A DNA stretch of 64,000 bases from Bacteroidota bacterium (GTDB lineage Bacteria > Bacteroidota > Ignavibacteria > Kryptoniales > JAKASW01): assembly GCA_021825585.1 (NCBI GenBank), contig JAKAGT010000022.1:2807-66806 (forward strand). The letters run 5' to 3'. Shown here one piece after another: positions 34,044 through 47,582 of this stretch. How positions within the stretch are numbered: position 1 is the stretch's first letter; every line of letters starts with the position of its first letter. The notes beneath the pieces were generated by a model. The model saw only the letters and a program-made list of their open reading frames with translations, ran no database searches and was not told the origin of the DNA. Position numbers and translations under genes: made by a program.

Positions 34044-34970
34044 ATGAGGCGACTCACGAATTTCCTTAAACTGATGAGACCCATCCAATGGGTCAAAAAT
34101 GTGTTCGTCGTCGTCCCTCTGATATTCTCCAAGAATCTCTTCAATGTCTCATTGTTTTCTCAGTCATTCCTGACTTTTCTCTCATTCTGCATGGCTGCCT
34201 CTTCTATTTATATTGTCAACGACATCGCAGACAGGAAGTTAGACATCATTCACCCGGTCAAGAAGACTCGCCCCATTGCCTCCGGGGAGGTATCCATCGG
34301 TGCGGGACTGGTGACATCGGCAGTCCTGCTGATACTCTCGTTTCTTCTTCTATCACTCGGAAGAGTCCCGCCGGGCTGCTGGCTGGCAATCTCCACATAC
34401 GTTGTCGTGAACTTGTTCTACTCCTTCGCTTTGAAGAAGGTCGTCCTCATAGACGTTTTTGTAATCGCGGTTGGATTCATCCTCAGAATTCTCGCGGGCG
34501 GTTACGCCATCGATGTAAAGATTTCCAGCTGGCTCATCATGACTACCCTCTTCATTGCGATTTTCCTGGGCATTGCGAAGCGAAGGAGTGAATTTGTCCA
34601 GATGGAGGGGAGCCCCAGTGAGACGGCACGAAAGGTCCTCGCCGATTACGACCTGAGCCTGATCGACCAGATACTTTCTGTATCTGCAGCGAGTGTAATC
34701 ATCACATACGCACTATACACGGTCTCCGAGCGGACGGTCCATGCGTTTGGGACCGAAGCTTTGATTTTTACGACTATCTTCGTCGTGTACGGAATTTTCA
34801 GATATTTGTACCTCATACATAAGATGGGGCTCGGCGAGAATCCCACCGGGGTGATTCTTGCGGATAAGCCGATGATAATCAACATAGTCTTTTACGTTAT
34901 CTCACTGGTCGCAATCATATATAAGCAGGAACTCATACACATAATCTTGAAGTATGTCTCTCTCTCCTGA
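34044..34970 (+). CDS. UbiA-family prenyl-phosphate phosphoribosyltransferase (decaprenyl-phosphate PRTase-like)
   Basis: 308 aa. MRPIQWVKNVFVVVPLIFS start. NDIADRKLDIIHPVKKTRPIASGEVS is the UbiA Asp-rich motif in the DPPR-synthase-like form. 8-9 TM helices. Confidence 0.7.
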   Translation: MRRLTNFLKLMRPIQWVKNVFVVVPLIFSKNLFNVSLFSQSFLTFLSFCMAASSIYIVNDIADRKLDIIHPVKKTRPIASGEVSIGAGLVTSAVLLILSFLLLSLGRVPPGCWLAISTYVVVNLFYSFALKKVVLIDVFVIAVGFILRILAGGYAIDVKISSWLIMTTLFIAIFLGIAKRRSEFVQMEGSPSETARKVLADYDLSLIDQILSVSAASVIITYALYTVSERTVHAFGTEALIFTTIFVVYGIFRYLYLIHKMGLGENPTGVILADKPMIINIVFYVISLVAIIYKQELIHIILKYVSLS

Positions 34971-35847
34971 TGCCCGGCCCGGCAAAGCCGAGACAGGTTC
35001 CCGGCGGCGCAGTGCCGAGCTGATTCTTTTCTCAATAACCTTCATCTGGGGCGGGACCTTCGCCGTCGTGAAATTTGCCCTGGGAGATGCCTCACCGCTT
35101 ACCTTTGTAGCCATAAGATTCGGCATAGCGTCCTTATTGTTTCCACTGATTTACCGCAAGAACTACCTGAAGATGGATAAGGGTACGCTTGCCAGCGGTT
35201 TACTCCTCGGTTTTCTCCTTATGATCGGATTTGCGTTCCAGACGGTAGGGCTGAAATACACGACGGCTTCCAAGTCCGCATTCATTACGGGACTTCTCGT
35301 CGCCTTCACGCCAATCGCACAGGCTGTCATAGAAAAGAAAATGCCTACGAAAGGGAATCTTATCGGCGTAGGCCTCGTGGCAATCGGGCTCTTCCTTCTC
35401 ACATCTCCCGGCGGACAGGGGTTTAACATCGGGGATTTACTCACTCTCGGATGCGCGATTTCTTATGCAATCTACATCGTCTACCTCGATATCTATTCCA
35501 AGAAACACGACGTGGCGAAGTTGACACTCCTCCAGCTATCCGAGACCGCCGTGCTTTCAATCGTGGCAGCTCCTTTCTTCGAAACGATGCACGTTTACTT
35601 CACCGCAGGTTTCATATGGGCGCTCGCGTACACGGCCATCCTTGCCACCGTTTTCGCCACCTACCTTCAAACCAAGTATCAGCGTGAGACTACTCCCGTA
35701 AGGGCGGCCATCATCTTCTCCATGGAACCCGTCCTCGCTAACGTCATAGCCTTCCTGGCTTTCGGGGAATTCGTCGGAGTAATCGGCGCGATTGGAGGGG
35801 TGCTCATTGTTGCGGGACTTCTTACCTCCGAATTGCTCGACTGGTAA
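34954..35847 (+). CDS. DMT-superfamily (EamA) transporter
   Basis: 297 aa with 10 predicted TM helices in two EamA halves. The start overlaps the previous gene by 17 nt. Confidence 0.75.
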   Translation: MSLSPDARPGKAETGSRRRSAELILFSITFIWGGTFAVVKFALGDASPLTFVAIRFGIASLLFPLIYRKNYLKMDKGTLASGLLLGFLLMIGFAFQTVGLKYTTASKSAFITGLLVAFTPIAQAVIEKKMPTKGNLIGVGLVAIGLFLLTSPGGQGFNIGDLLTLGCAISYAIYIVYLDIYSKKHDVAKLTLLQLSETAVLSIVAAPFFETMHVYFTAGFIWALAYTAILATVFATYLQTKYQRETTPVRAAIIFSMEPVLANVIAFLAFGEFVGVIGAIGGVLIVAGLLTSELLDW

Positions 35848-36076
35848 CGGGGACCGATTCACTTGCCGGACAGGCCCCCATACCGTTTTCGCCAGGACGT
35901 GGCTTTCTTCGCATTGGATTCGTCAACGCGGCACAAAGCACTCTCTTCGATTTAGCATGATATATGATCCCTTGAGATATTTGGCCGGTTGGCAGGGGGA
36001 ACAGCCGGCGCGGCTTATCCGTTTATAGATTGTCGGCAAAACTGCTCCAGGAAATCAACCAAGCTTAGGGACGCAT

Positions 36077-36913
36077 ATGCAAGATAGTGCAGCAACGGAA
36101 TCGCGGAGACTCAACGAAAGAGACGTTAGCCCGGCAGATATAGACCACTACAGGGCAAACGGATACGTTTGCTTGTCGGCCGTGGCAACCCAGGAGGAGA
36201 TAAAGACTTTTCGGCCCGTTATCGAAAACGTGGTTAGGGCGACCACCGAGAGCCGCGATACACAAGGGAGGCTCGACGACTACAGCAAGATGTTTCAGCA
36301 GGTCACAAACGCGTGGAGACTCGACCGGAGAGTCGAAGAGTTTGTCCTTGCGAGGAAGTTCGGCAGAATCGCCGCACGATTGATGGGAGTGAAAGGAGTC
36401 CGCCTGTATCATGACCAGGCGCTTTTCAAACCGCCCGGCGGCGAAAGGACTTATTGGCATCAGGATATGTTTTACTGGCCGCTCGACACGGACAGGACCA
36501 TTACAATGTGGATGCCTTTGGTCGATGTGGATGCCGGAATGGGGACAATGATCTTCGCGTGTGGCTCCCATCGGGACGGGCTTGTGAGTGCTTCGCCCAT
36601 CTCCGAATCGGCCGGCGAATTCGTCGGGAAAGTGGTAAAAGAAAAAGGGTACGAGTGCCGCAGCCATGTTCTGAAGGCAGGCGATGCCACATTTCATTCG
36701 GGATATACGATCCATTCCGCTTATCCGAACAAGAGCGAATCGACCAGAGAGGTCATGACAGTCATCTACTATGCTGACGGCACCCGGCTCCTTGAGAGAC
36801 CGAACGAGTACCAGGTCGTCGACATGAACGTTTTCCTACCCGGTACCAGGCCCGGTGACCCTGCCGTAAGTCCACTGAACCCGATCGTGTACGAAGAGAC
36901 TATTGCAGTCTAG
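36077..36913 (+). CDS. phytanoyl-CoA dioxygenase (PhyH) family Fe(II)/2-oxoglutarate oxygenase
   Basis: 278 aa. HQDMFYWPLD (H-x-D iron ligands) and a distal His (TFHSGYTIHSA). N-terminal YRANGYV is typical of the family. Confidence 0.75.
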   Translation: MQDSAATESRRLNERDVSPADIDHYRANGYVCLSAVATQEEIKTFRPVIENVVRATTESRDTQGRLDDYSKMFQQVTNAWRLDRRVEEFVLARKFGRIAARLMGVKGVRLYHDQALFKPPGGERTYWHQDMFYWPLDTDRTITMWMPLVDVDAGMGTMIFACGSHRDGLVSASPISESAGEFVGKVVKEKGYECRSHVLKAGDATFHSGYTIHSAYPNKSESTREVMTVIYYADGTRLLERPNEYQVVDMNVFLPGTRPGDPAVSPLNPIVYEETIAV

Positions 36914-37019: not shown

Positions 37020-37048
37020 TGCTGAATTTGATTCAGCACCTGGTTTTT
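37020..37048 (+). terminator. weak candidate terminator after the PhyH gene
   Basis: TGCTGAAT-TTG-ATTCAGCA (8-bp AT-rich stem) is followed by CCTGG and then T5. It lies ~107 nt after the stop. The AT-rich stem and offset T-run lower my confidence. Confidence 0.35.
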
Positions 37049-37116: not shown

Positions 37117-37145
37117 TTGACATTCCGTAAACAGAGAGTTAGATT
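37117..37145 (+). promoter_or_regulatory. candidate sigma-70-type promoter for the AmmeMemoRadiSam operon
   Basis: TTGACA (37117-37122), a 17-nt spacer, then TAGATT (37140-37145). It lies ~86 nt upstream of the ATG at 37231. Pattern match only. Confidence 0.35.
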
Positions 37146-37230: not shown

Positions 37231-38472
37231 ATGAGCGAGCATAGTCTTTCAAGGAGAGAATTCCTTTCTAAATCAGGCCTGCTGATCGGCTGCGGTTATC
37301 TTGCACTTTCCTCCCCGATTATTGTCGAAGACTTACTCCGGTTGTTAAGCGGAGGACCGCGTTGCGCCTGGGGGCAGAGCCCCGATGCCGCTTCGCACGC
37401 CGCTCGCTACTGGATCGCCGCTAATTCTCCGGGTGTCGATTGCCTTTCATGTCATTCGATGTCGCAACTTGAAGGCAAGAAGCAGTACGATCACGAAGAG
37501 AAGTTTGTGAAATGCCTTCTGTGTGCCCAGGGGTGCGTCATGAAGGAGAATGAGCGCGGGAAATGCAGGGCAAGAATCAACATTAACGGTAATCTAAGAA
37601 GCCTTGTATATGGTAAACCGATAGCGATTCATATCGATCCGATAGAGAAGAAACCTTTCTTCCATTTCCTGCCGGGGAGCCAGGCTTACTCATTTGCCAC
37701 TGCAGGCTGCCCGCTGTCATGCCAGTTCTGCCAGAACTGGGAAATCTCGCAGTCAAAGCCGGAGGACTTTTCGGTCAGGTTCATTCCGCCCGCCGAGATA
37801 GCCGATGACAGTGAATCCCAAAAGGCCCCCATAATAGCCTTTACCTATAACGAGCCGACTGTGTTTATCGAGTATCTGACGGACGTAGCGCGAGAGGCAA
37901 GGAAGAAGAAGATCAGGTCGGTAATGGTCAGCTGCGGGTTCATGAACGAGGAGCCGCTTAGGGAAATGTGCGAGGTACTCGATGCGATCAAAATAGATCT
38001 GAAGGGATTCAGCGAAGACTTCTATCACAGAGTCTGCTCCGCTGAACTCAAGCCGGTGCTGCGAAGCATAAAACAGGTCTCAAAAACCGATGCTCATTTG
38101 GAGATTGTAAACCTGGTCGTGCCGACATTGAACGATTCCGACGGGATGCTGAATGAACTTTCAAACTGGATTATGGGAGAGACAGGGCCCGATGTACCGG
38201 TCCATTTCACCAGGTTCCATCCGGATTATAAACTGCTGAACCTTCCGCCGACGCCGATCTCCACGTTGGAACGTGCGAGAGAAATCGCAATGTCGAAAGG
38301 AATTCACTATGCTTTTGTCGGCAACGTTCCGGGTCACCCTGGCAGCTCAACATATTGCCCGAACTGCGGCAAAGTTGTGATAAATCGAACCGGTTTCTTC
38401 GTAACAGAAAATCACATAAAGAACCGGCGCTGCAAGTATTGCGGCCATATCATTGCCGGCGTCTGGAGCTAG
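37231..38472 (+). CDS. AmmeMemoRadiSam-system radical SAM enzyme (AmrS-like) with N-terminal twin-arginine motif
   Basis: 413 aa. Radical SAM CPLSCQFCQNW (Cx3Cx2C). An upstream Cys cluster VKCLLCAQGCVMKENERGKCRAR and a C-terminal CPNCG...CKYCG ribbon are typical of this family. N-terminal SRREFLSKSGLLIGCGYLAL matches S/T-R-R-x-F-L-K plus an h-region. Confidence 0.8.
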   Translation: MSEHSLSRREFLSKSGLLIGCGYLALSSPIIVEDLLRLLSGGPRCAWGQSPDAASHAARYWIAANSPGVDCLSCHSMSQLEGKKQYDHEEKFVKCLLCAQGCVMKENERGKCRARININGNLRSLVYGKPIAIHIDPIEKKPFFHFLPGSQAYSFATAGCPLSCQFCQNWEISQSKPEDFSVRFIPPAEIADDSESQKAPIIAFTYNEPTVFIEYLTDVAREARKKKIRSVMVSCGFMNEEPLREMCEVLDAIKIDLKGFSEDFYHRVCSAELKPVLRSIKQVSKTDAHLEIVNLVVPTLNDSDGMLNELSNWIMGETGPDVPVHFTRFHPDYKLLNLPPTPISTLERAREIAMSKGIHYAFVGNVPGHPGSSTYCPNCGKVVINRTGFFVTENHIKNRRCKYCGHIIAGVWS

Positions 38473-38478
38473 ACTTTC

Positions 38479-40008
38479 ATGAAAAGGACTTCTTACTGTA
38501 TTGCTTTCTTGCTGCTGGTCGTCTCATGCAGCGGCGAGAAAATCAACCCGAACAATTCTCAACCGCAGTCCACAAGACCGGCTGCCTTCGCCGGGACTTT
38601 CTATCCCGCCGACTCGACGATGCTGGCCAACGCGATAACGGCTTTCGTGAAGGATGCAAGTCCGATTGTTGCAACCGACCCCGTCGCGATTATCGTACCA
38701 CATGCAGGCTACGTTTTCTCCGGACAGATTGCCGCTGACGGATACAATCAGGTGAGGCACACAGCCTATGACCTGGTCGTCATTATCGGTACAAACCACT
38801 CGGTGTCTAACCTGGCAGGCATCGTCGTTTATCCGAAAGGTGCTTTCGCAACCCCGATCGGAGCTGCGGAGATCGATGAGAAAGCGGCTGACGAACTCAT
38901 GAAGGAAGACCGTGATGCGGCTGCGAACGTGCCGGCGCATGCGAAGGAGCACTCAGTGGAAGTCCAGGTTCCCTTCATCAAGTATTTGTTCCCTCACGCC
39001 AGGATTCTGCCTGTAATCATCGGTGAACCGGATGTCGATCTATGCATCAGGTTCGGCCATGCGCTGGCAAAGGTGCTCAAGAACAAGGAAGCGCTGATAG
39101 TTGCAAGTTCGGACCTGTCGCACTATCCCGGCTTCGACGACGCTGTACGCACAGACAACCGCACTCTCAAGACGATATGTTCGATGGACCCGGAAGAAAT
39201 AAGCCGAAGCTTATCTCAGCAAGTGGGCAGAAACGTTCCCGGTCTTTTGACCTGCGCGTGCGGCGAGGGACCCATCATAGCCGCGGTCGCTGCCGCTAAG
39301 GATCTCGGGGCGAATAGCACATCGATTGTCGGGTACAGCAATTCCGGTTACAACCCGCTCGGCACCGCAGATCGCGTTGTCGGATACGGCGCCGTCGTTT
39401 TTGGAAAAGGCAAAGCCAGCGCACCGGACGATGTCGACAGCCTCGTTGTGAATTCTGATTACAGGCTTGATTCGTCGGATAAGCGAACACTTCTCGGATA
39501 CGCAAGAAAAACGCTTGAGCAATACTTCACATCTCAAACCGTCCCCCTTCCCCGACATTTCAACCCATTTCTGAAAGTAAAGCGCGGCGCTTTTGTCACA
39601 CTGAGAAAGAACGGCGAATTGCGCGGGTGCATCGGGCACATGGACGAAGACAGGCCTTTGAGCACAGTCGTCGGAGCCATGGCGCTTCAAGCCGCCTTTA
39701 ACGATCCGAGATTCAGATCGCTGAGTGCAGATGAGCTGCGGCAAATCGAGATTGAGATTTCCGTCCTGACACCCATCGCGAAGGTTGGTAGTGCAGCCGA
39801 CATCGTCCTCGGACGTGACGGCGTCGTGCTCAAGAAAGGGGATAAACAGGCCGTGTTTCTCCCACAGGTAGCCAAGGAAACAGGATGGAGCAGGGAAGTA
39901 TTCCTGGACCAGCTTTGTTACAAAGCGGGTTTGAACGCCGGCGACTGGAAGAAAGCCGACTTGTTTACTTTCCAGGCGGATGTCTTCAGCGAAGCAGAAA
40001 TTCATTGA
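38479..40008 (+). CDS. fusion of AmmeMemoRadiSam protein B (Memo-like) and protein A (AMMECR1 domain), with lipoprotein signal peptide
   Basis: 509 aa. N-terminus MKRTSYCIAFLLLVVSCSG carries a lipobox. Memo motifs: AGTFYPAD, VPHAGYVFSG, EHSVEVQVPF, SSDLSHY, CACGEGPI. The C-terminal AMMECR1 domain has GAFVTLRKNGELRGCIGH and AVFLPQV. There is a 6-nt gap after the radical SAM gene. Confidence 0.8.
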   Translation: MKRTSYCIAFLLLVVSCSGEKINPNNSQPQSTRPAAFAGTFYPADSTMLANAITAFVKDASPIVATDPVAIIVPHAGYVFSGQIAADGYNQVRHTAYDLVVIIGTNHSVSNLAGIVVYPKGAFATPIGAAEIDEKAADELMKEDRDAAANVPAHAKEHSVEVQVPFIKYLFPHARILPVIIGEPDVDLCIRFGHALAKVLKNKEALIVASSDLSHYPGFDDAVRTDNRTLKTICSMDPEEISRSLSQQVGRNVPGLLTCACGEGPIIAAVAAAKDLGANSTSIVGYSNSGYNPLGTADRVVGYGAVVFGKGKASAPDDVDSLVVNSDYRLDSSDKRTLLGYARKTLEQYFTSQTVPLPRHFNPFLKVKRGAFVTLRKNGELRGCIGHMDEDRPLSTVVGAMALQAAFNDPRFRSLSADELRQIEIEISVLTPIAKVGSAADIVLGRDGVVLKKGDKQAVFLPQVAKETGWSREVFLDQLCYKAGLNAGDWKKADLFTFQADVFSEAEIH

Positions 40009-42253
40009 GAGGGTAAGAGCCGGCGGCACCTACACGTATCTTCTCGCCGTCGGCTTCATCTCGATCCTGGGACAAGTTGTGGTGCTTCGGGAGCTCAATG
40101 TAGCGTTTTACGGTATCGAACTGATTTACATCCTCTCGATCGGCTTCTGGCTCTCCGGGACGGCGATCGGCGCATCTGTAGGCCGCCACTCAGGCGTACC
40201 GGCGGAGAAGCAGATCGACGTGCTCCTGCTCGCCACTGCCGCAATTCTGTTGATGGACATCGGATTCATACGGGGTATGCGGAACATACTGGGCGGCGTC
40301 GTGGGCGGATATCTCCCTTTCACGAAGCAGATGATAGGATTGGCGATAGCACTGCTGCCGATCAGTTTCTTATCCGGGCTCCTGTTCCAATGGTGCGCAA
40401 AGAGATTCGTGTCGGAAAACCGATCATTCGCAAAGGCTTATGCCGTAGAGAGCGCCGGAGGTGTCCTCGGCGGACTGTCGTCAACCCTCTTCCTTAGTCT
40501 GGGGCTTCAAAACTTCTCTGCCGCGCTCATATGCAGCGTGCTCGCAGTTGCCATCGTAATGCTTTATGCCGGCCGCGCCGAAGATCCGGGCGTGAACCAA
40601 ATTGAGCCACAAGAGACAAGGAGACCCGGAGGCATCAAGTACTTTTCTGTCGCGGGATTACTGGGACTAATCATACTCTTCAGCTTCTCCCGAGAAGTTG
40701 ACCAATGGATGACTTCCTGGAATCACACCGGCCTGGTCGAGACGCGGGACACACCATACAGTCGTGTCACTGTGACGGCTCAAGGAGGGCAGGTCTGCGT
40801 CTTCGAGGATGACGCGCTTGCTTATGAGACTCAGAGCATCTCTGCCGAGGAGTTCGTTCAGCTTGCAACCCTGCAGTCGGTGAAGCCGGGAAGAGTGCTT
40901 CTCTTAGGAGGAGGATTCGAAGGCATCCTTCTTGAACTGCTGAAGCTCCCCCTGAAGGAGATCGACTACGTTGAAATCAACAGCGACATAATCGAGACGG
41001 TGCGCGGTCATTTGCCTGATGACCTTAGCAGTTCTCTGCATGATCGGAGGGTGGATATCATCTTTGGGGACCCGAGGCGGTTTCTTCATCGCCCGCGTTC
41101 CTATGACATGATACTTGTGGCTATGCCCGACCCCACGTCGGCACAGAACAATCGATTCTACACCAGAGAGTTCTTCGAAGAGTGTTCCGCGTTGTTGGAC
41201 AAGGACGGCATACTTGCCTTTGACATTCGCTCGGCGGAAAACCTATGGACACCGCAGATGCGGGCAAGAAACGGCAGTATCTTCCGTGCTTTGAAATCGG
41301 CTTTCAATTATGTCGTGGTTCTGCCCGGAGTGACAAACATATTCATCGCTTCACAATCCATGCTGAAGACCGACCCTGTCAGGCTTGCAGATCGATTCAA
41401 GGAGAGAGAGATTCAAGCCCGCCTGGTTTCTCCTGAGTACATAAACTACCTGTACACAAATGACAGGTTCGCCGCGGCGAACGAGATGCTTTCGTCGGGA
41501 TCACCTGTCGCCAACTCCGATTTTCGCCCGGCCTGTTACGGTTATACCATGTCAATCTGGTTGTCCAAATTCTTCCCAGATTTCGTATTACCGGCACCTC
41601 GCCCGTTGACAATCGCCAGCCTATCAGCCTCCGTGATCTTCTGGCTCGCGCTCGTCATCGTAATGGTAATAAGCATCAGCAGGCGACTGACGTCCGCGCG
41701 GCGGTTCGTGCTTGTAATGCTTGCAGGATTCACTGGCATGGTTACGGAAACGCTGCTCATGCTGAATTACCAGAGTAAGAGCGGGGTGCTTTACCAGGAC
41801 ATCGGTATCTTGCTGATGAGCTTCATGATAGGGCTGACACTTGGTGCATTTATTATCGACAGGCTTCTCCAATCGAGAATCCATCACGAGAAGCTCCCGG
41901 GCCGGCAACATCTTCATGTTATCGCCATCGGAGTCGCACTGCTTCTGGGCTTTGGCCTTCTGAACATGGCCGCATACTATTTTTTCAGACTTGGACTCCT
42001 TAACGGTCTGTATTCTACTTCCGTGGCTCTGATCCTGGACGGGTCATTCGTCTCGGCAACTTTTGCATTGGTTGTCATCAGAGAAACAGGGGACCGGAAA
42101 GGGCTTCCGATCAGGCTCTACTCCGCCGACCTTATCGGAGGAAGCTTAGGCTCCTTGATTGCCAGCCTTTTCCTCATACCTGTTTACGGAATACTCGTCG
42201 CGTCGATAATGATGGGGACCCTGGCGTTCTGCGGATTGGTTTTCCTAAGGTGA
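39980..42253 (+). CDS. polytopic membrane protein with central spermidine-synthase-like (aminopropyl/methyl-transferase fold) domain
   Basis: 757 aa. About 7 N-terminal and about 6 C-terminal TM helices flank a soluble domain. That domain has VLLLGGGFEGILLELLK...EIDYVEIN...DMILVAMPDPTSAQNNRFYTREFF, the spermidine synthase G-loop and D-x-x-DP...F(Y)T-x-EF motif. It overlaps the upstream gene by 29 nt. Confidence 0.7.
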   Translation: MSSAKQKFIERVRAGGTYTYLLAVGFISILGQVVVLRELNVAFYGIELIYILSIGFWLSGTAIGASVGRHSGVPAEKQIDVLLLATAAILLMDIGFIRGMRNILGGVVGGYLPFTKQMIGLAIALLPISFLSGLLFQWCAKRFVSENRSFAKAYAVESAGGVLGGLSSTLFLSLGLQNFSAALICSVLAVAIVMLYAGRAEDPGVNQIEPQETRRPGGIKYFSVAGLLGLIILFSFSREVDQWMTSWNHTGLVETRDTPYSRVTVTAQGGQVCVFEDDALAYETQSISAEEFVQLATLQSVKPGRVLLLGGGFEGILLELLKLPLKEIDYVEINSDIIETVRGHLPDDLSSSLHDRRVDIIFGDPRRFLHRPRSYDMILVAMPDPTSAQNNRFYTREFFEECSALLDKDGILAFDIRSAENLWTPQMRARNGSIFRALKSAFNYVVVLPGVTNIFIASQSMLKTDPVRLADRFKEREIQARLVSPEYINYLYTNDRFAAANEMLSSGSPVANSDFRPACYGYTMSIWLSKFFPDFVLPAPRPLTIASLSASVIFWLALVIVMVISISRRLTSARRFVLVMLAGFTGMVTETLLMLNYQSKSGVLYQDIGILLMSFMIGLTLGAFIIDRLLQSRIHHEKLPGRQHLHVIAIGVALLLGFGLLNMAAYYFFRLGLLNGLYSTSVALILDGSFVSATFALVVIRETGDRKGLPIRLYSADLIGGSLGSLIASLFLIPVYGILVASIMMGTLAFCGLVFLR

Positions 42254-46019: not shown

Positions 46020-47582
46020 CTAAATCGTTCTGGAGTATTCGGAAGTGTCGAGCTTCCACACGGGTACACCGCAATAGCGCTTTCCCTCCGGGCAGTACGG
46101 GGTGGTGCCTGCCATTGACCTTACAGTACACGGAGGCAGCAGGAATTTCCCAAGCGCAGGATGCACTTGTTTTATTTGCTCGACTTCATCGAGGGAAGCA
46201 TTCCAGATTTCTTCCTGTGCGTTGTAACAGAGCCGCATTTCTGCCTTGTGATGAAGGTTGAGCAGGTCCGCGGACTCGGTAAACCTTATCGGAAAAGCGT
46301 TCGGTAGAAGGTAGGCGGCAAATTCGGTGCTGACGCCGAGAGATATGAGTCTGTCTATCGATTCCCATGTCACGTTCATAGTCCGCCTGTAGAGTCTCTC
46401 CGCCTCGTCGTCCAGCAGGACCAGCTTCGGCACTATGTAATCAGGTTCGCTTCTCATGTGTTCTGCGATGATGGGTCTCGAACCTGGAGTCATCCTGTGA
46501 CGCTGGTCCTGAGAATCGGCGGTATGGCTCAGCTTCTTCCTGAACGTGTAAGACGCGTGGTAGAGAGCCCTGGATATCTTGTCGTGTGTGGTCAGCACGA
46601 GCGAGCTCTGGAGCACTTTGTTGCGCACCGGATCAATCGCAAGCGCTATCGCCTCGGAGTCGGACAGTTCCGAAGAGCTTCTGCCGAGGACCTCCCTGAC
46701 CGCACACGCTATGACCTTTTCTGAGTTCGCCTTATAGTCGACGAGTTTAGAGACATGGTCGCCCAGCTCGCGGTCGAATTCCCCGATGAAGTCCGACTGC
46801 GCTTCGTGGTTCCCGATATTCTCGTTTGAGAAGAATTTCTCATCGAGCGGTTCATCGATAACCAGCTGGTAATTCGGGTCGAACTTCAGGAGCTCCCGTA
46901 CCATCATGTCGACGACAATCTGCTGTTCGTAGGGAGTGTCGCCGGACTTGGACATCTTGGCATACCTTAGAAGCGTTATGCCGCTCACGGTATGGTAGAG
47001 ATATGAAAACGTCGCGACAGGAAGCACGTATCTCGCGATTTCCTGCGCCTTCTTTTTGATTTCGCCTGCAAAGCGCTTGTCGTTTCCGCGCCTCGGAAAC
47101 ACTGCCAGGTACGCTCTGCCTGCCGGCCTCATCAGCAGCTCGACGAGTTTCCGGTAAGCCTGGATCTGTACGCCCGCGGTGTTCGTATAGACCTCCAGGG
47201 CCTCGCCCTTCAGCGGAGGCACAAAGAAGTTTCCATCCTTTACTTCGACATACCGCTGGCTTACCTGCTCGGAATTGTAAAACGGATGTGAATGCAGGAA
47301 CGACCAGATGAATTGCCGCGAGACATCCGAGAGCTGAAACTGAAACGTCGCATGTTGAAAGGTGGTATGATGCCCTGCCTCATAGATGTCCAGTGCCAGG
47401 CTGCGATACCTGTCCATTTCGATCGACTCATCCTCTATAATCCCCTTCGAGGAATAGCAGGTCCGGGCGGCTGCAATGACATTTTTGAACGAGTTGGCAA
47501 AAGCCTTGACGAGTTTAACCTGCGGGGGCCGTGAAACCCCGCCTTCGTATCTATTTTCAATCCGAACTGTCTCTTCCGACAT
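46020..47582 (-). CDS. tandem-domain ThyX-like protein (FAD-dependent thymidylate synthase family)
   Basis: 520 aa, about twice the usual ThyX length. The N-half has LHSHPFYNSEQVSQRY, the shape of the ThyX R-H-R-x7-8-S-x-R-Y signature with HSH in place of RHR. The C-half has QDQRHRMT (RHR present) but no following SxRY. Confidence 0.6.
   Translation of the reverse strand: MSEETVRIENRYEGGVSRPPQVKLVKAFANSFKNVIAAARTCYSSKGIIEDESIEMDRYRSLALDIYEAGHHTTFQHATFQFQLSDVSRQFIWSFLHSHPFYNSEQVSQRYVEVKDGNFFVPPLKGEALEVYTNTAGVQIQAYRKLVELLMRPAGRAYLAVFPRRGNDKRFAGEIKKKAQEIARYVLPVATFSYLYHTVSGITLLRYAKMSKSGDTPYEQQIVVDMMVRELLKFDPNYQLVIDEPLDEKFFSNENIGNHEAQSDFIGEFDRELGDHVSKLVDYKANSEKVIACAVREVLGRSSSELSDSEAIALAIDPVRNKVLQSSLVLTTHDKISRALYHASYTFRKKLSHTADSQDQRHRMTPGSRPIIAEHMRSEPDYIVPKLVLLDDEAERLYRRTMNVTWESIDRLISLGVSTEFAAYLLPNAFPIRFTESADLLNLHHKAEMRLCYNAQEEIWNASLDEVEQIKQVHPALGKFLLPPCTVRSMAGTTPYCPEGKRYCGVPVWKLDTSEYSRTI

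Follow-up and report, generated by a model that had tools for sequence, protein, structure and literature searches.

The AMMECR1/Memo/radical S-adenosylmethionine (radical-SAM) triad, known as AmmeMemoRadiSam, is a conserved three-gene system whose substrate and function are enigmatic. Here we describe a version with predicted export signals, encoded in a 64,000-nucleotide stretch (the window) of contig JAKAGT010000022.1 from a Bacteroidota bacterium of the Ignavibacteria (assembly GCA_021825585.1). Three consecutive open reading frames on the + strand encode a radical-SAM enzyme (rSAM; 413 aa), a fusion of Memo-like and AMMECR1 domains (509 aa), and a polytopic membrane protein (757 aa) with an inserted domain resembling the spermidine synthase SpeE (Table 1). 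Only 6 nt separate the rSAM and fusion genes, as an initial annotation made from the sequence alone had described, and the start of the SpeE-like gene overlaps the end of the fusion gene by 29 nt. Within the window, the three most likely form one transcription unit.

Table 1. Features of the cassette and its upstream boundary in the window; residue numbers refer to the respective protein
Feature	Position (nt)	Strand	Evidence
AmmeMemoRadiSam radical-SAM enzyme, 413 aa	37231..38472	+	TIGR04337, PF04055, AlphaFold2 model
Predicted twin-arginine-type signal/anchor, residues 1-36, hydrophobic region GLLIGCGYLALSSPIIV	37231..37338	+	conservation, TIGR01409, hydropathy, AlphaFold2
24-aa insert, residues 70-93: C71-L-S-C74-H75 (nt 37441-37455) and H88	37438..37509	+	alignment conservation
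Family-typical N-terminal Cys cluster: C95, C98, C102, C112	37513..37566	+	invariant or near-invariant over 25 diverse members
Radical-SAM CX3CX2C: C160, C164, C167	37708..37731	+	sequence; invariant in 25- and 55-sequence alignments
C-terminal CxxC...CxxC ribbon: C376, C379, C401, C404	38356..38442	+	invariant in 25-sequence alignment
Memo::AMMECR1 fusion lipoprotein (predicted), 509 aa	38479..40008	+	TIGR04336, TIGR04335, PF01875, PF01871
Predicted lipoprotein signal peptide MKRTSYCIAFLLLVVS-C17, lipobox V-V-S-C	38479..38529	+	PS51257-type pattern
Memo-like domain (protein B), residues 33-308	38575..39402	+	TIGR04336, Pfam, MEMO1 structures (E=2e-15)
AMMECR1 domain (protein A), residues 337-503	39487..39987	+	TIGR04335, Pfam, archaeal AMMECR1-like 1zq7 and 1vaj
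Polytopic membrane protein with inserted aminopropyltransferase-fold domain, 757 aa	39980..42253	+	synteny, AlphaFold2
N-terminal bundle, 7 transmembrane helices, residues ~18-239	40031..40696	+	family hydropathy, AlphaFold2 helices
Soluble SpeE-like (class I SAM/decarboxylated-SAM-binding) domain, residues ~240-548	40697..41623	+	PF01564, Foldseek, charge bias
C-terminal bundle, 7 transmembrane helices, residues ~549-757	41624..42250	+	hydropathy, charge, AlphaFold2
Terminator-like hairpin and T-run after the upstream PhyH-like gene	37020..37038	+	consensus scan only, weak evidence
Promoter-like site TTGACA-17-TAGATT, 86 nt 5' of the rSAM start	37117..37145	+	10/12 consensus matches only

All three proteins belong to known families. 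The hmmsearch check proposed with the initial annotation places the rSAM and the fusion in the AmmeMemoRadiSam families, each above cutoff: TIGR04337 scores 374.2 bits on the rSAM (cutoff 220; residues 88–412), and on the fusion TIGR04336 scores 244.4 bits (cutoff 26; residues 33–308) and TIGR04335 174.7 bits (cutoff 99; residues 337–503). Pfam agrees, with matches to Radical_SAM (PF04055), Memo (PF01875) and AMMECR1 (PF01871). The components are also adjacent, as is usual for the system: proteins B and A are fused, the rSAM gene is their immediate neighbor, and this layout is kept at other loci.

The rSAM begins with MSEHSLSRREFLSK, which contains the twin-arginine (RR) motif read in the initial annotation, S7-R8-R9-E10-F11-L12-S13-K14 (S7–L12 at nt 37249–37266). 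Residues R8, R9 and F11 are invariant in an alignment of 55 homologs with 62–80% identity. In a second alignment, of 25 distant family members with 35–59% identity, the RR pair occupies the same column in 21 sequences; the other four, which are of the cytoplasmic type, begin at the core. The protein is matched from end to end by 120 database homologs (63–100% identity; Ignavibacteria, Melioribacteraceae and other metagenome-assembled genomes), and nearly all of these open with the pattern x(4-8)-[ST]-R-R-x-F-[IL]. The sole family model to match the window's rSAM N terminus is TIGR01409, the curated model for signals of the twin-arginine translocation (Tat) pathway. Scored on 55-aa N termini, as this short model gets lost in full-length searches, it reaches 14.4 bits for the window protein against a cutoff of 16.7, and exceeds the cutoff in five of ten relatives (16.9–24.7 bits). 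The hydrophobicity of the following region, taken as the highest value in any 12-residue stretch, gives a median Kyte–Doolittle score of 1.72 for the rSAMs versus 2.68 for the signals of the fusion proteins (Mann–Whitney P=3e-15); in the window the two values are 1.72 and 2.69. This is the difference expected between Tat and Sec signals and argues for a Tat-like signal on the rSAM.

The AlphaFold2 model of the rSAM (mean predicted local distance difference test score, pLDDT, 79.9) features a helix at residues 8–27 and a disordered linker at residues 37–53, and is ordered from residue ~55 onward. The N-terminal Cys cluster and the CX3CX2C motif, by which the gene was originally recognized, are both present and conserved. 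The extension upstream of the conserved core is shorter than the ~95 aa first assigned to it: signal and linker amount to ~55 aa, and ARYW (residues 58–61), the counterpart of the EAxFY with which canonical members begin, is already part of the family core. A 24-aa insert carrying a CxxCH motif, which lies within that supposed extension, had been overlooked. The best match among solved structures is pyruvate formate-lyase (PFL)-activating enzyme (3cb8; TM-score 0.82, normalized to target), and the secondary matches among NCBIfam models are all glycyl-radical activases, the best of them again PFL-activating enzyme. Unlike these activases, the window rSAM bears additional Cys clusters toward both its N and C termini, is predicted to be extracytoplasmic, scores 56 bits against an equivalog cutoff of 232, and is not accompanied by a glycyl-radical enzyme partner.

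The fusion protein begins with MKRTSYCIAFLLLVVSC, in which the n-region residues K2 and R3 together with the stretch ...LLLVVS-C17 match a PS51257-type lipobox regular expression, with Cys17 as the predicted lipidation site. A hydrophobic region followed by a cysteine is kept in 91 of the 99 fusion homologs with an intact N terminus, and 32 of the 99 satisfy the strict lipobox pattern. The Memo::AMMECR1 fusion with a lipobox that had been proposed for this gene is thus borne out by the family models and by the conserved cysteine.

In the AlphaFold2 model of the third protein (pLDDT 88.7, predicted TM-score 0.89), a soluble domain separates two bundles of seven helices each. PF01564 matches this domain with 69 bits, and Foldseek aligns it to 1uir with E=1.7e-13 and a TM-score of 0.75 (normalized to target). 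In a set of 59 homologs, each of the seven short loops predicted to be cytoplasmic has on average 1.5–2.9 Lys and Arg residues, and each of the six predicted to be external 0–1.2. By the positive-inside rule, this charge bias places the SpeE-like domain outside, and we predict that it faces the periplasm. The domain shares with SpeE, including the membrane-anchored PRK03612-type enzymes, the fold and the cofactor positions, namely the GGG loop, the ribose-binding E332, and D364. In contrast, the catalytic acids are altered: the GGG(D/E)G loop reads GGGFEG (from GGGDGG), so that the acid is displaced by one residue, and the DxxDP pair is reduced to AMPDP, having lost the first Asp and kept the second acid. 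Its scores also fall far below those required by the NCBIfam aminopropyltransferase equivalogs (91 versus 472, 87 versus 260, and 71 versus 250 bits), and it differs from SpeE in being inserted between two seven-helix bundles and in its predicted outward orientation.

An identity of the membrane domain as a major facilitator superfamily transporter was considered and is not established: the Pfam model MFS_1 gives no match to the window protein, and finds 3 of its 59 relatives at ~25 bits, against a gathering threshold of 33.4. A weak repeat is visible between residues 143–166 (AYAxESAGGxxGG) and residues 705–728 (LYSADLIGGxxGS), and hhalign aligns the N-terminal half to the C-terminal half with E=0.003 and a probability of 9.6%, which hints that the membrane domain contains an internal duplication. 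Identical (100%) database entries exist for the rSAM and the fusion (P0001 and P0121), and the best match of the SpeE-like protein is P0391, at 73%; the deposited gene may have a different start call or may be absent.

The arrangement is not peculiar to this genome. An exhaustive phmmer search of 1.84 billion representative sequences retrieved 1430 members of the rSAM family at E<=1e-30, and at least 26 of the best 150 matches listed, from several subfamilies, have RR-type N termini. A scan of one genome per species found 594 relatives, and we analyzed the best 80 loci, which span more than 15 phyla. The rSAM N terminus is of RR type at 58 of these loci, transmembrane- or Sec-like at 12, signal-less at 8 and truncated at 2. 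A Memo::AMMECR1 fusion is encoded at 42 of the 80 loci and bears an N-terminal hydrophobic signal at 40 of those 42. The SpeE-like membrane protein, whose co-occurrence had likewise been singled out for checking, is present at 35 of the 80 loci. As the succession of rSAM, fusion and a ~720-aa Spermine_synth protein recurs at loci with unrelated flanks, we count the SpeE-like gene as part of the cassette. The set of three genes is kept in more than 15 phyla, and the window locus is a typical representative of a large clade that is so far undescribed.

As a control, cytoplasmic-type rSAMs, which start MKEA..., served as seeds for a further scan. Of the 29 signal-less rSAMs that it returned, 19 are flanked neither by a fusion gene nor by one of the SpeE-like type. 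Among the remainder, one lies beside a fusion without a signal and nine beside a signal-bearing fusion; these nine represent a distinct ~325-aa class that starts xVQCE. Proteins of this class (L032, L035, L056, L079, L091, L096-L098, L111, L114, L117, L132, L140 and L151) begin at the Cys motif, yet adjoin signal-bearing fusions and SpeE-like genes. At four of these loci, all from the genome set (L032, L035, L056 and L079), a NosR-like gene (DsbD_2+FMN_bind+Fer4_5) lies immediately upstream of the rSAM. Two unusual architectures were also seen: P0271 (835 aa) is a Memo::AMMECR1::rSAM triple fusion behind a Sec-like signal, and P0250 (919 aa) carries the rSAM behind a signal and a beta-propeller (Reg_prop/PorZ_N). 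Export of an Fe–S domain behind a non-RR signal, as in these two, would be hard to explain.

The CxxCH insert bears on how an exported rSAM might receive electrons. The 55-sequence alignment shows no variation at C71, C74 or H75 and at least 90% conservation of H88. The insert resembles a duplicate of the VxCxLC motif that comes after it, and it is confined to the RR-bearing clade closest to the window: neither the other Tat-type relatives nor the cytoplasmic ones have it. A CxxCH motif with a nearby histidine is the signature of a covalently bound, bis-His-ligated c-type heme, and residues 70–93 may be a module of this heme-c type (CxxCH...H) or may instead provide an additional metal site. 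Apoproteins of c-type cytochromes are exported unfolded by Sec and matured by Ccm or Ccs; the rSAM departs from this pattern in that its signal is of the Tat type. A second version of the insert, CxxCH-x10-Y-C-H-x-P-H, with an additional Cys and His, occurs at three metagenome loci (L101, L113 and L120) and could represent a different metal or heme arrangement. At one locus (L003:1-5000; contig CDLTLD010000017.1, GCA_975963955.1), the cassette lies shortly 3' of genes for URO-D, a HemN-like radical-SAM protein, ferrochelatase and an amine-oxidase-type protein; two unrelated genes intervene, and this single instance may be coincidence.

Loci that lack the insert tend to carry accessory redox genes instead: these are found at none of 19 CxxCH-clade loci versus 38 of 63 others (Fisher P=7e-7, calculated without phylogenetic correction). 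They encode an RR-signal DUF362 protein at 22 loci, DsbD_2 at 10, and a NosR-like DsbD_2-FMN_bind-Fer4_5 protein at 6. This complementarity fits a role of the CxxCH insert as the electron entry of the window's clade. The DUF362 protein, of ~340 aa and with a twin-arginine start of its own (MRRRAFFKSL...), precedes the rSAM at 22 genome loci (within L027-L083), all without the insert; an example directly upstream of the rSAM is L049:5834-6860 (+). Elsewhere the rSAM core forms the C-terminal part of fusions to DsbD_2 and/or FMN_bind+Fer4_5 membrane modules (P0242, P0254, P0263, P0248 and P0258), with DsbD_2, FMN_bind, Fer4_5 and rSAM all joined in single proteins in P0263, P0248 and P0258. In the NosR/NapH- and DsbD/CcdA-type conduits, which these fusions and gene pairs of the sister clades resemble, such modules deliver electrons to enzymes of the periplasm; the window itself has none of them and carries the CxxCH insert in their place. 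By helix counting, a single additional helix separates the rSAM of the DsbD_2/NosR-like fusions from the preceding cytoplasmic CX3CP motif, and helix counting together with charge bias would place it on the FMN_bind side, that is, the outer side. An RR motif before the last helix of these fusions, sought as a sign of dual Sec/Tat insertion, was not found.

The conserved RR signal of the rSAM, the conserved lipoprotein signal of the fusion and the outward-facing SpeE-like domain support an envelope location, as does the lack of fusion or SpeE-like neighbors at 19 of the 29 signal-less control rSAMs. We consider it probable that the cassette is an extracytoplasmic version of AmmeMemoRadiSam, a radical-SAM system acting at the envelope. 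The initial annotation had offered two readings, an envelope-acting variant or N-terminal regions serving as membrane anchors or regulatory elements; the conserved signals, the topology of the SpeE-like protein and the control loci favor the former.

In such a system, the rSAM would fold and gain its Fe–S clusters in the cytoplasm, and would then be moved across the membrane by Tat, a pathway able to export folded, cofactor-loaded proteins; it may still be tethered afterward. The Memo::AMMECR1 fusion would leave via Sec and become a lipoprotein, and the 14-helix partner would present its aminopropyltransferase-fold domain, capable of binding SAM or decarboxylated SAM (dcSAM), on the same outer face. 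Jointly, the three proteins could work on the periplasmic side of the inner membrane, modifying a substrate of the envelope. A radical-SAM enzyme needs electrons near -450 mV. Those for the radical-SAM cluster might arrive via the CxxCH...H insert in the window's clade and via DUF362, DsbD_2 or NosR-like partners in the sister clades, and SAM would either be carried bound to the folded rSAM or be supplied by the membrane partner. The most specific form of this proposal, in which the Tat-exported rSAM takes up electrons through a covalent low-potential c-type heme at CxxCH...H and the 14-helix SpeE-like partner supplies or uses SAM or dcSAM periplasmically, is tentative and, in our judgment, doubtful.

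Several points weigh against an envelope-acting system. The TIGR01409 score of the window protein itself lies under the cutoff, and vestigial twin-arginine motifs that do not direct export exist, for example in NarG. A conserved AxA signal-peptidase site after the hydrophobic region was not found in the 55-sequence consensus, where LSxP is conserved, and the rSAM may therefore remain uncleaved and tethered by its signal. The pairs of signal-less rSAM and signal-bearing fusion imply that an rSAM need not share the compartment of its partner. Radical-SAM chemistry depends on SAM and strong reductants, and neither a SAM pool nor a radical-SAM reductant is known from the periplasm, which makes an rSAM acting outside the cytoplasm surprising. 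The localization calls are all predictions, derived from hydropathy, regular-expression and charge heuristics.

Some of these points speak for a cytoplasmic rSAM. The RR motif and hydrophobic stretch would then be a vestigial Tat signal, a peripheral membrane tether or a chaperone-binding tag, and the enzyme would dock on the cytoplasmic face of the SpeE-like protein, its product being passed outward to the periplasmic Memo::AMMECR1 lipoprotein. The best argument for this arrangement is the ~325-aa class of signal-less rSAMs beside signal-bearing fusions and SpeE-like genes; SAM and ferredoxin or flavodoxin are cytoplasmic, and the TIGR01409 score just under the cutoff and the lack of a conserved AxA cleavage site also fit. 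It is harder to reconcile with an RR-F motif that stays unchanged even between distant relatives and across many subfamilies, with a hydrophobic region of typical Tat hydrophobicity, and with the restriction of CxxCH to an RR-bearing clade, which fits a periplasmic site. Even the signal-less rSAMs can lie directly 3' of DsbD_2-FMN_bind-Fer4_5 genes, the fused forms of which put the rSAM outside by helix counting. We regard a cytoplasmic rSAM as possible, if unlikely.

The enzyme might also be exported and yet not turn over, acting once as a maturation device or serving as a structural or redox subunit with SAM bound before export. The resemblance to PFL-activating enzyme, a protein-directed activase, and to the glycyl-radical activases among the NCBIfam matches is compatible with this, as is the capacity of Tat to carry proteins loaded with their cofactors. 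The conserved electron-entry modules (CxxCH, DUF362, DsbD_2 and NosR-like) argue instead for repeated reduction outside, and the outward orientation of the SAM/dcSAM-fold domain points to the availability of an adenosyl cofactor there; an exported rSAM that does not turn over is improbable. Finally, it is scarcely credible that the signals are annotation artefacts of ordinary cytoplasmic components with true starts downstream. The rSAM frame does contain an in-frame TTG (L38) and M77, but over 100 homologs belonging to several phyla conserve residues 1–36 at the protein level, with R8, R9 and F11 invariant, a start at M77 would remove the conserved ARYW and CxxCH, and the lipobox Cys recurs in 91 of 99 fusion homologs. 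A downstream start had been named beforehand as the finding that would overturn the signals; none emerged from the homolog alignments, by which we judge that neither N-terminal signal is a start-codon artefact.

The favored envelope-acting system can be set beside known ones. With canonical, cytoplasmic AmmeMemoRadiSam it shares matches to the three family models, the CX3CX2C motif, the N-terminal four-Cys cluster, the C-terminal Cys ribbon and the adjacency of the genes. The differences are an RR-type signal and a CxxCH insert in the window rSAM, the joining of A and B in one protein headed by a lipoprotein signal, and the SpeE-like membrane protein as an additional conserved member of the cassette; canonical rSAMs start MKEA... 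and do not have these neighbors. Tat-exported Fe–S proteins such as hydrogenase small subunits, NapG and Rieske proteins likewise combine a twin-arginine motif and a mildly hydrophobic region with an Fe–S passenger that is folded before export, and Rieske proteins retain the Tat signal as an anchor.

The terminator-like hairpin upstream of the cassette probably marks the upstream limit of the cassette's transcription unit. Genes for a UbiA prenyltransferase, an EamA transporter and a PhyH-type dioxygenase lie upstream on the same strand (34044–36913 of the window). They were considered as members of the system, prompted by a proposed isoprenoid link, and rejected, as none of them stands beside the cassette at other loci. 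Farther downstream, on the - strand (46020–47582), a gene adjoining one for a UvrD-type helicase encodes a ~520-aa protein with two Thy1 (ThyX) stretches, which looks like a tandem-duplicated ThyX; an equivalent pair lies downstream of the cassette at L001:15446-17023.

Full-text literature searches turned up neither an exported AmmeMemoRadiSam variant nor a Tat-targeted radical-SAM enzyme, although the Memo-context survey of Burroughs et al. 2019 could mention one. The nearest literature match is an effector that is matured in the cytoplasm and exported later, and database annotations label the proteins described here as plain AmmeMemoRadiSam components.

An exported rSAM raises two questions, namely where SAM and where low-potential electrons come from outside the cell, and the CxxCH, DUF362, DsbD_2 and NosR-like additions look like alternative answers to the second. 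If the heme-bearing form of the export proposal were true, the window rSAM would be the first radical-SAM enzyme in the periplasm and, at the same time, a natural c-type heme protein exported by Tat, and Memo and AMMECR1 would have an envelope substrate. Conservation of both proteins extends from archaea to humans, and both have links to human disease, yet their biochemical function is enigmatic. A large bacterial clade whose components are all predicted to be on the periplasmic side, and in which a SAM-fold membrane protein accompanies them, narrows the search for the Memo/AMMECR1 substrate to envelope molecules. With cultured carriers at hand (Rosettibacter firmus and Thermoanaerobaculum aquaticum), this clade would offer a genetically separable test system for Memo and AMMECR1.

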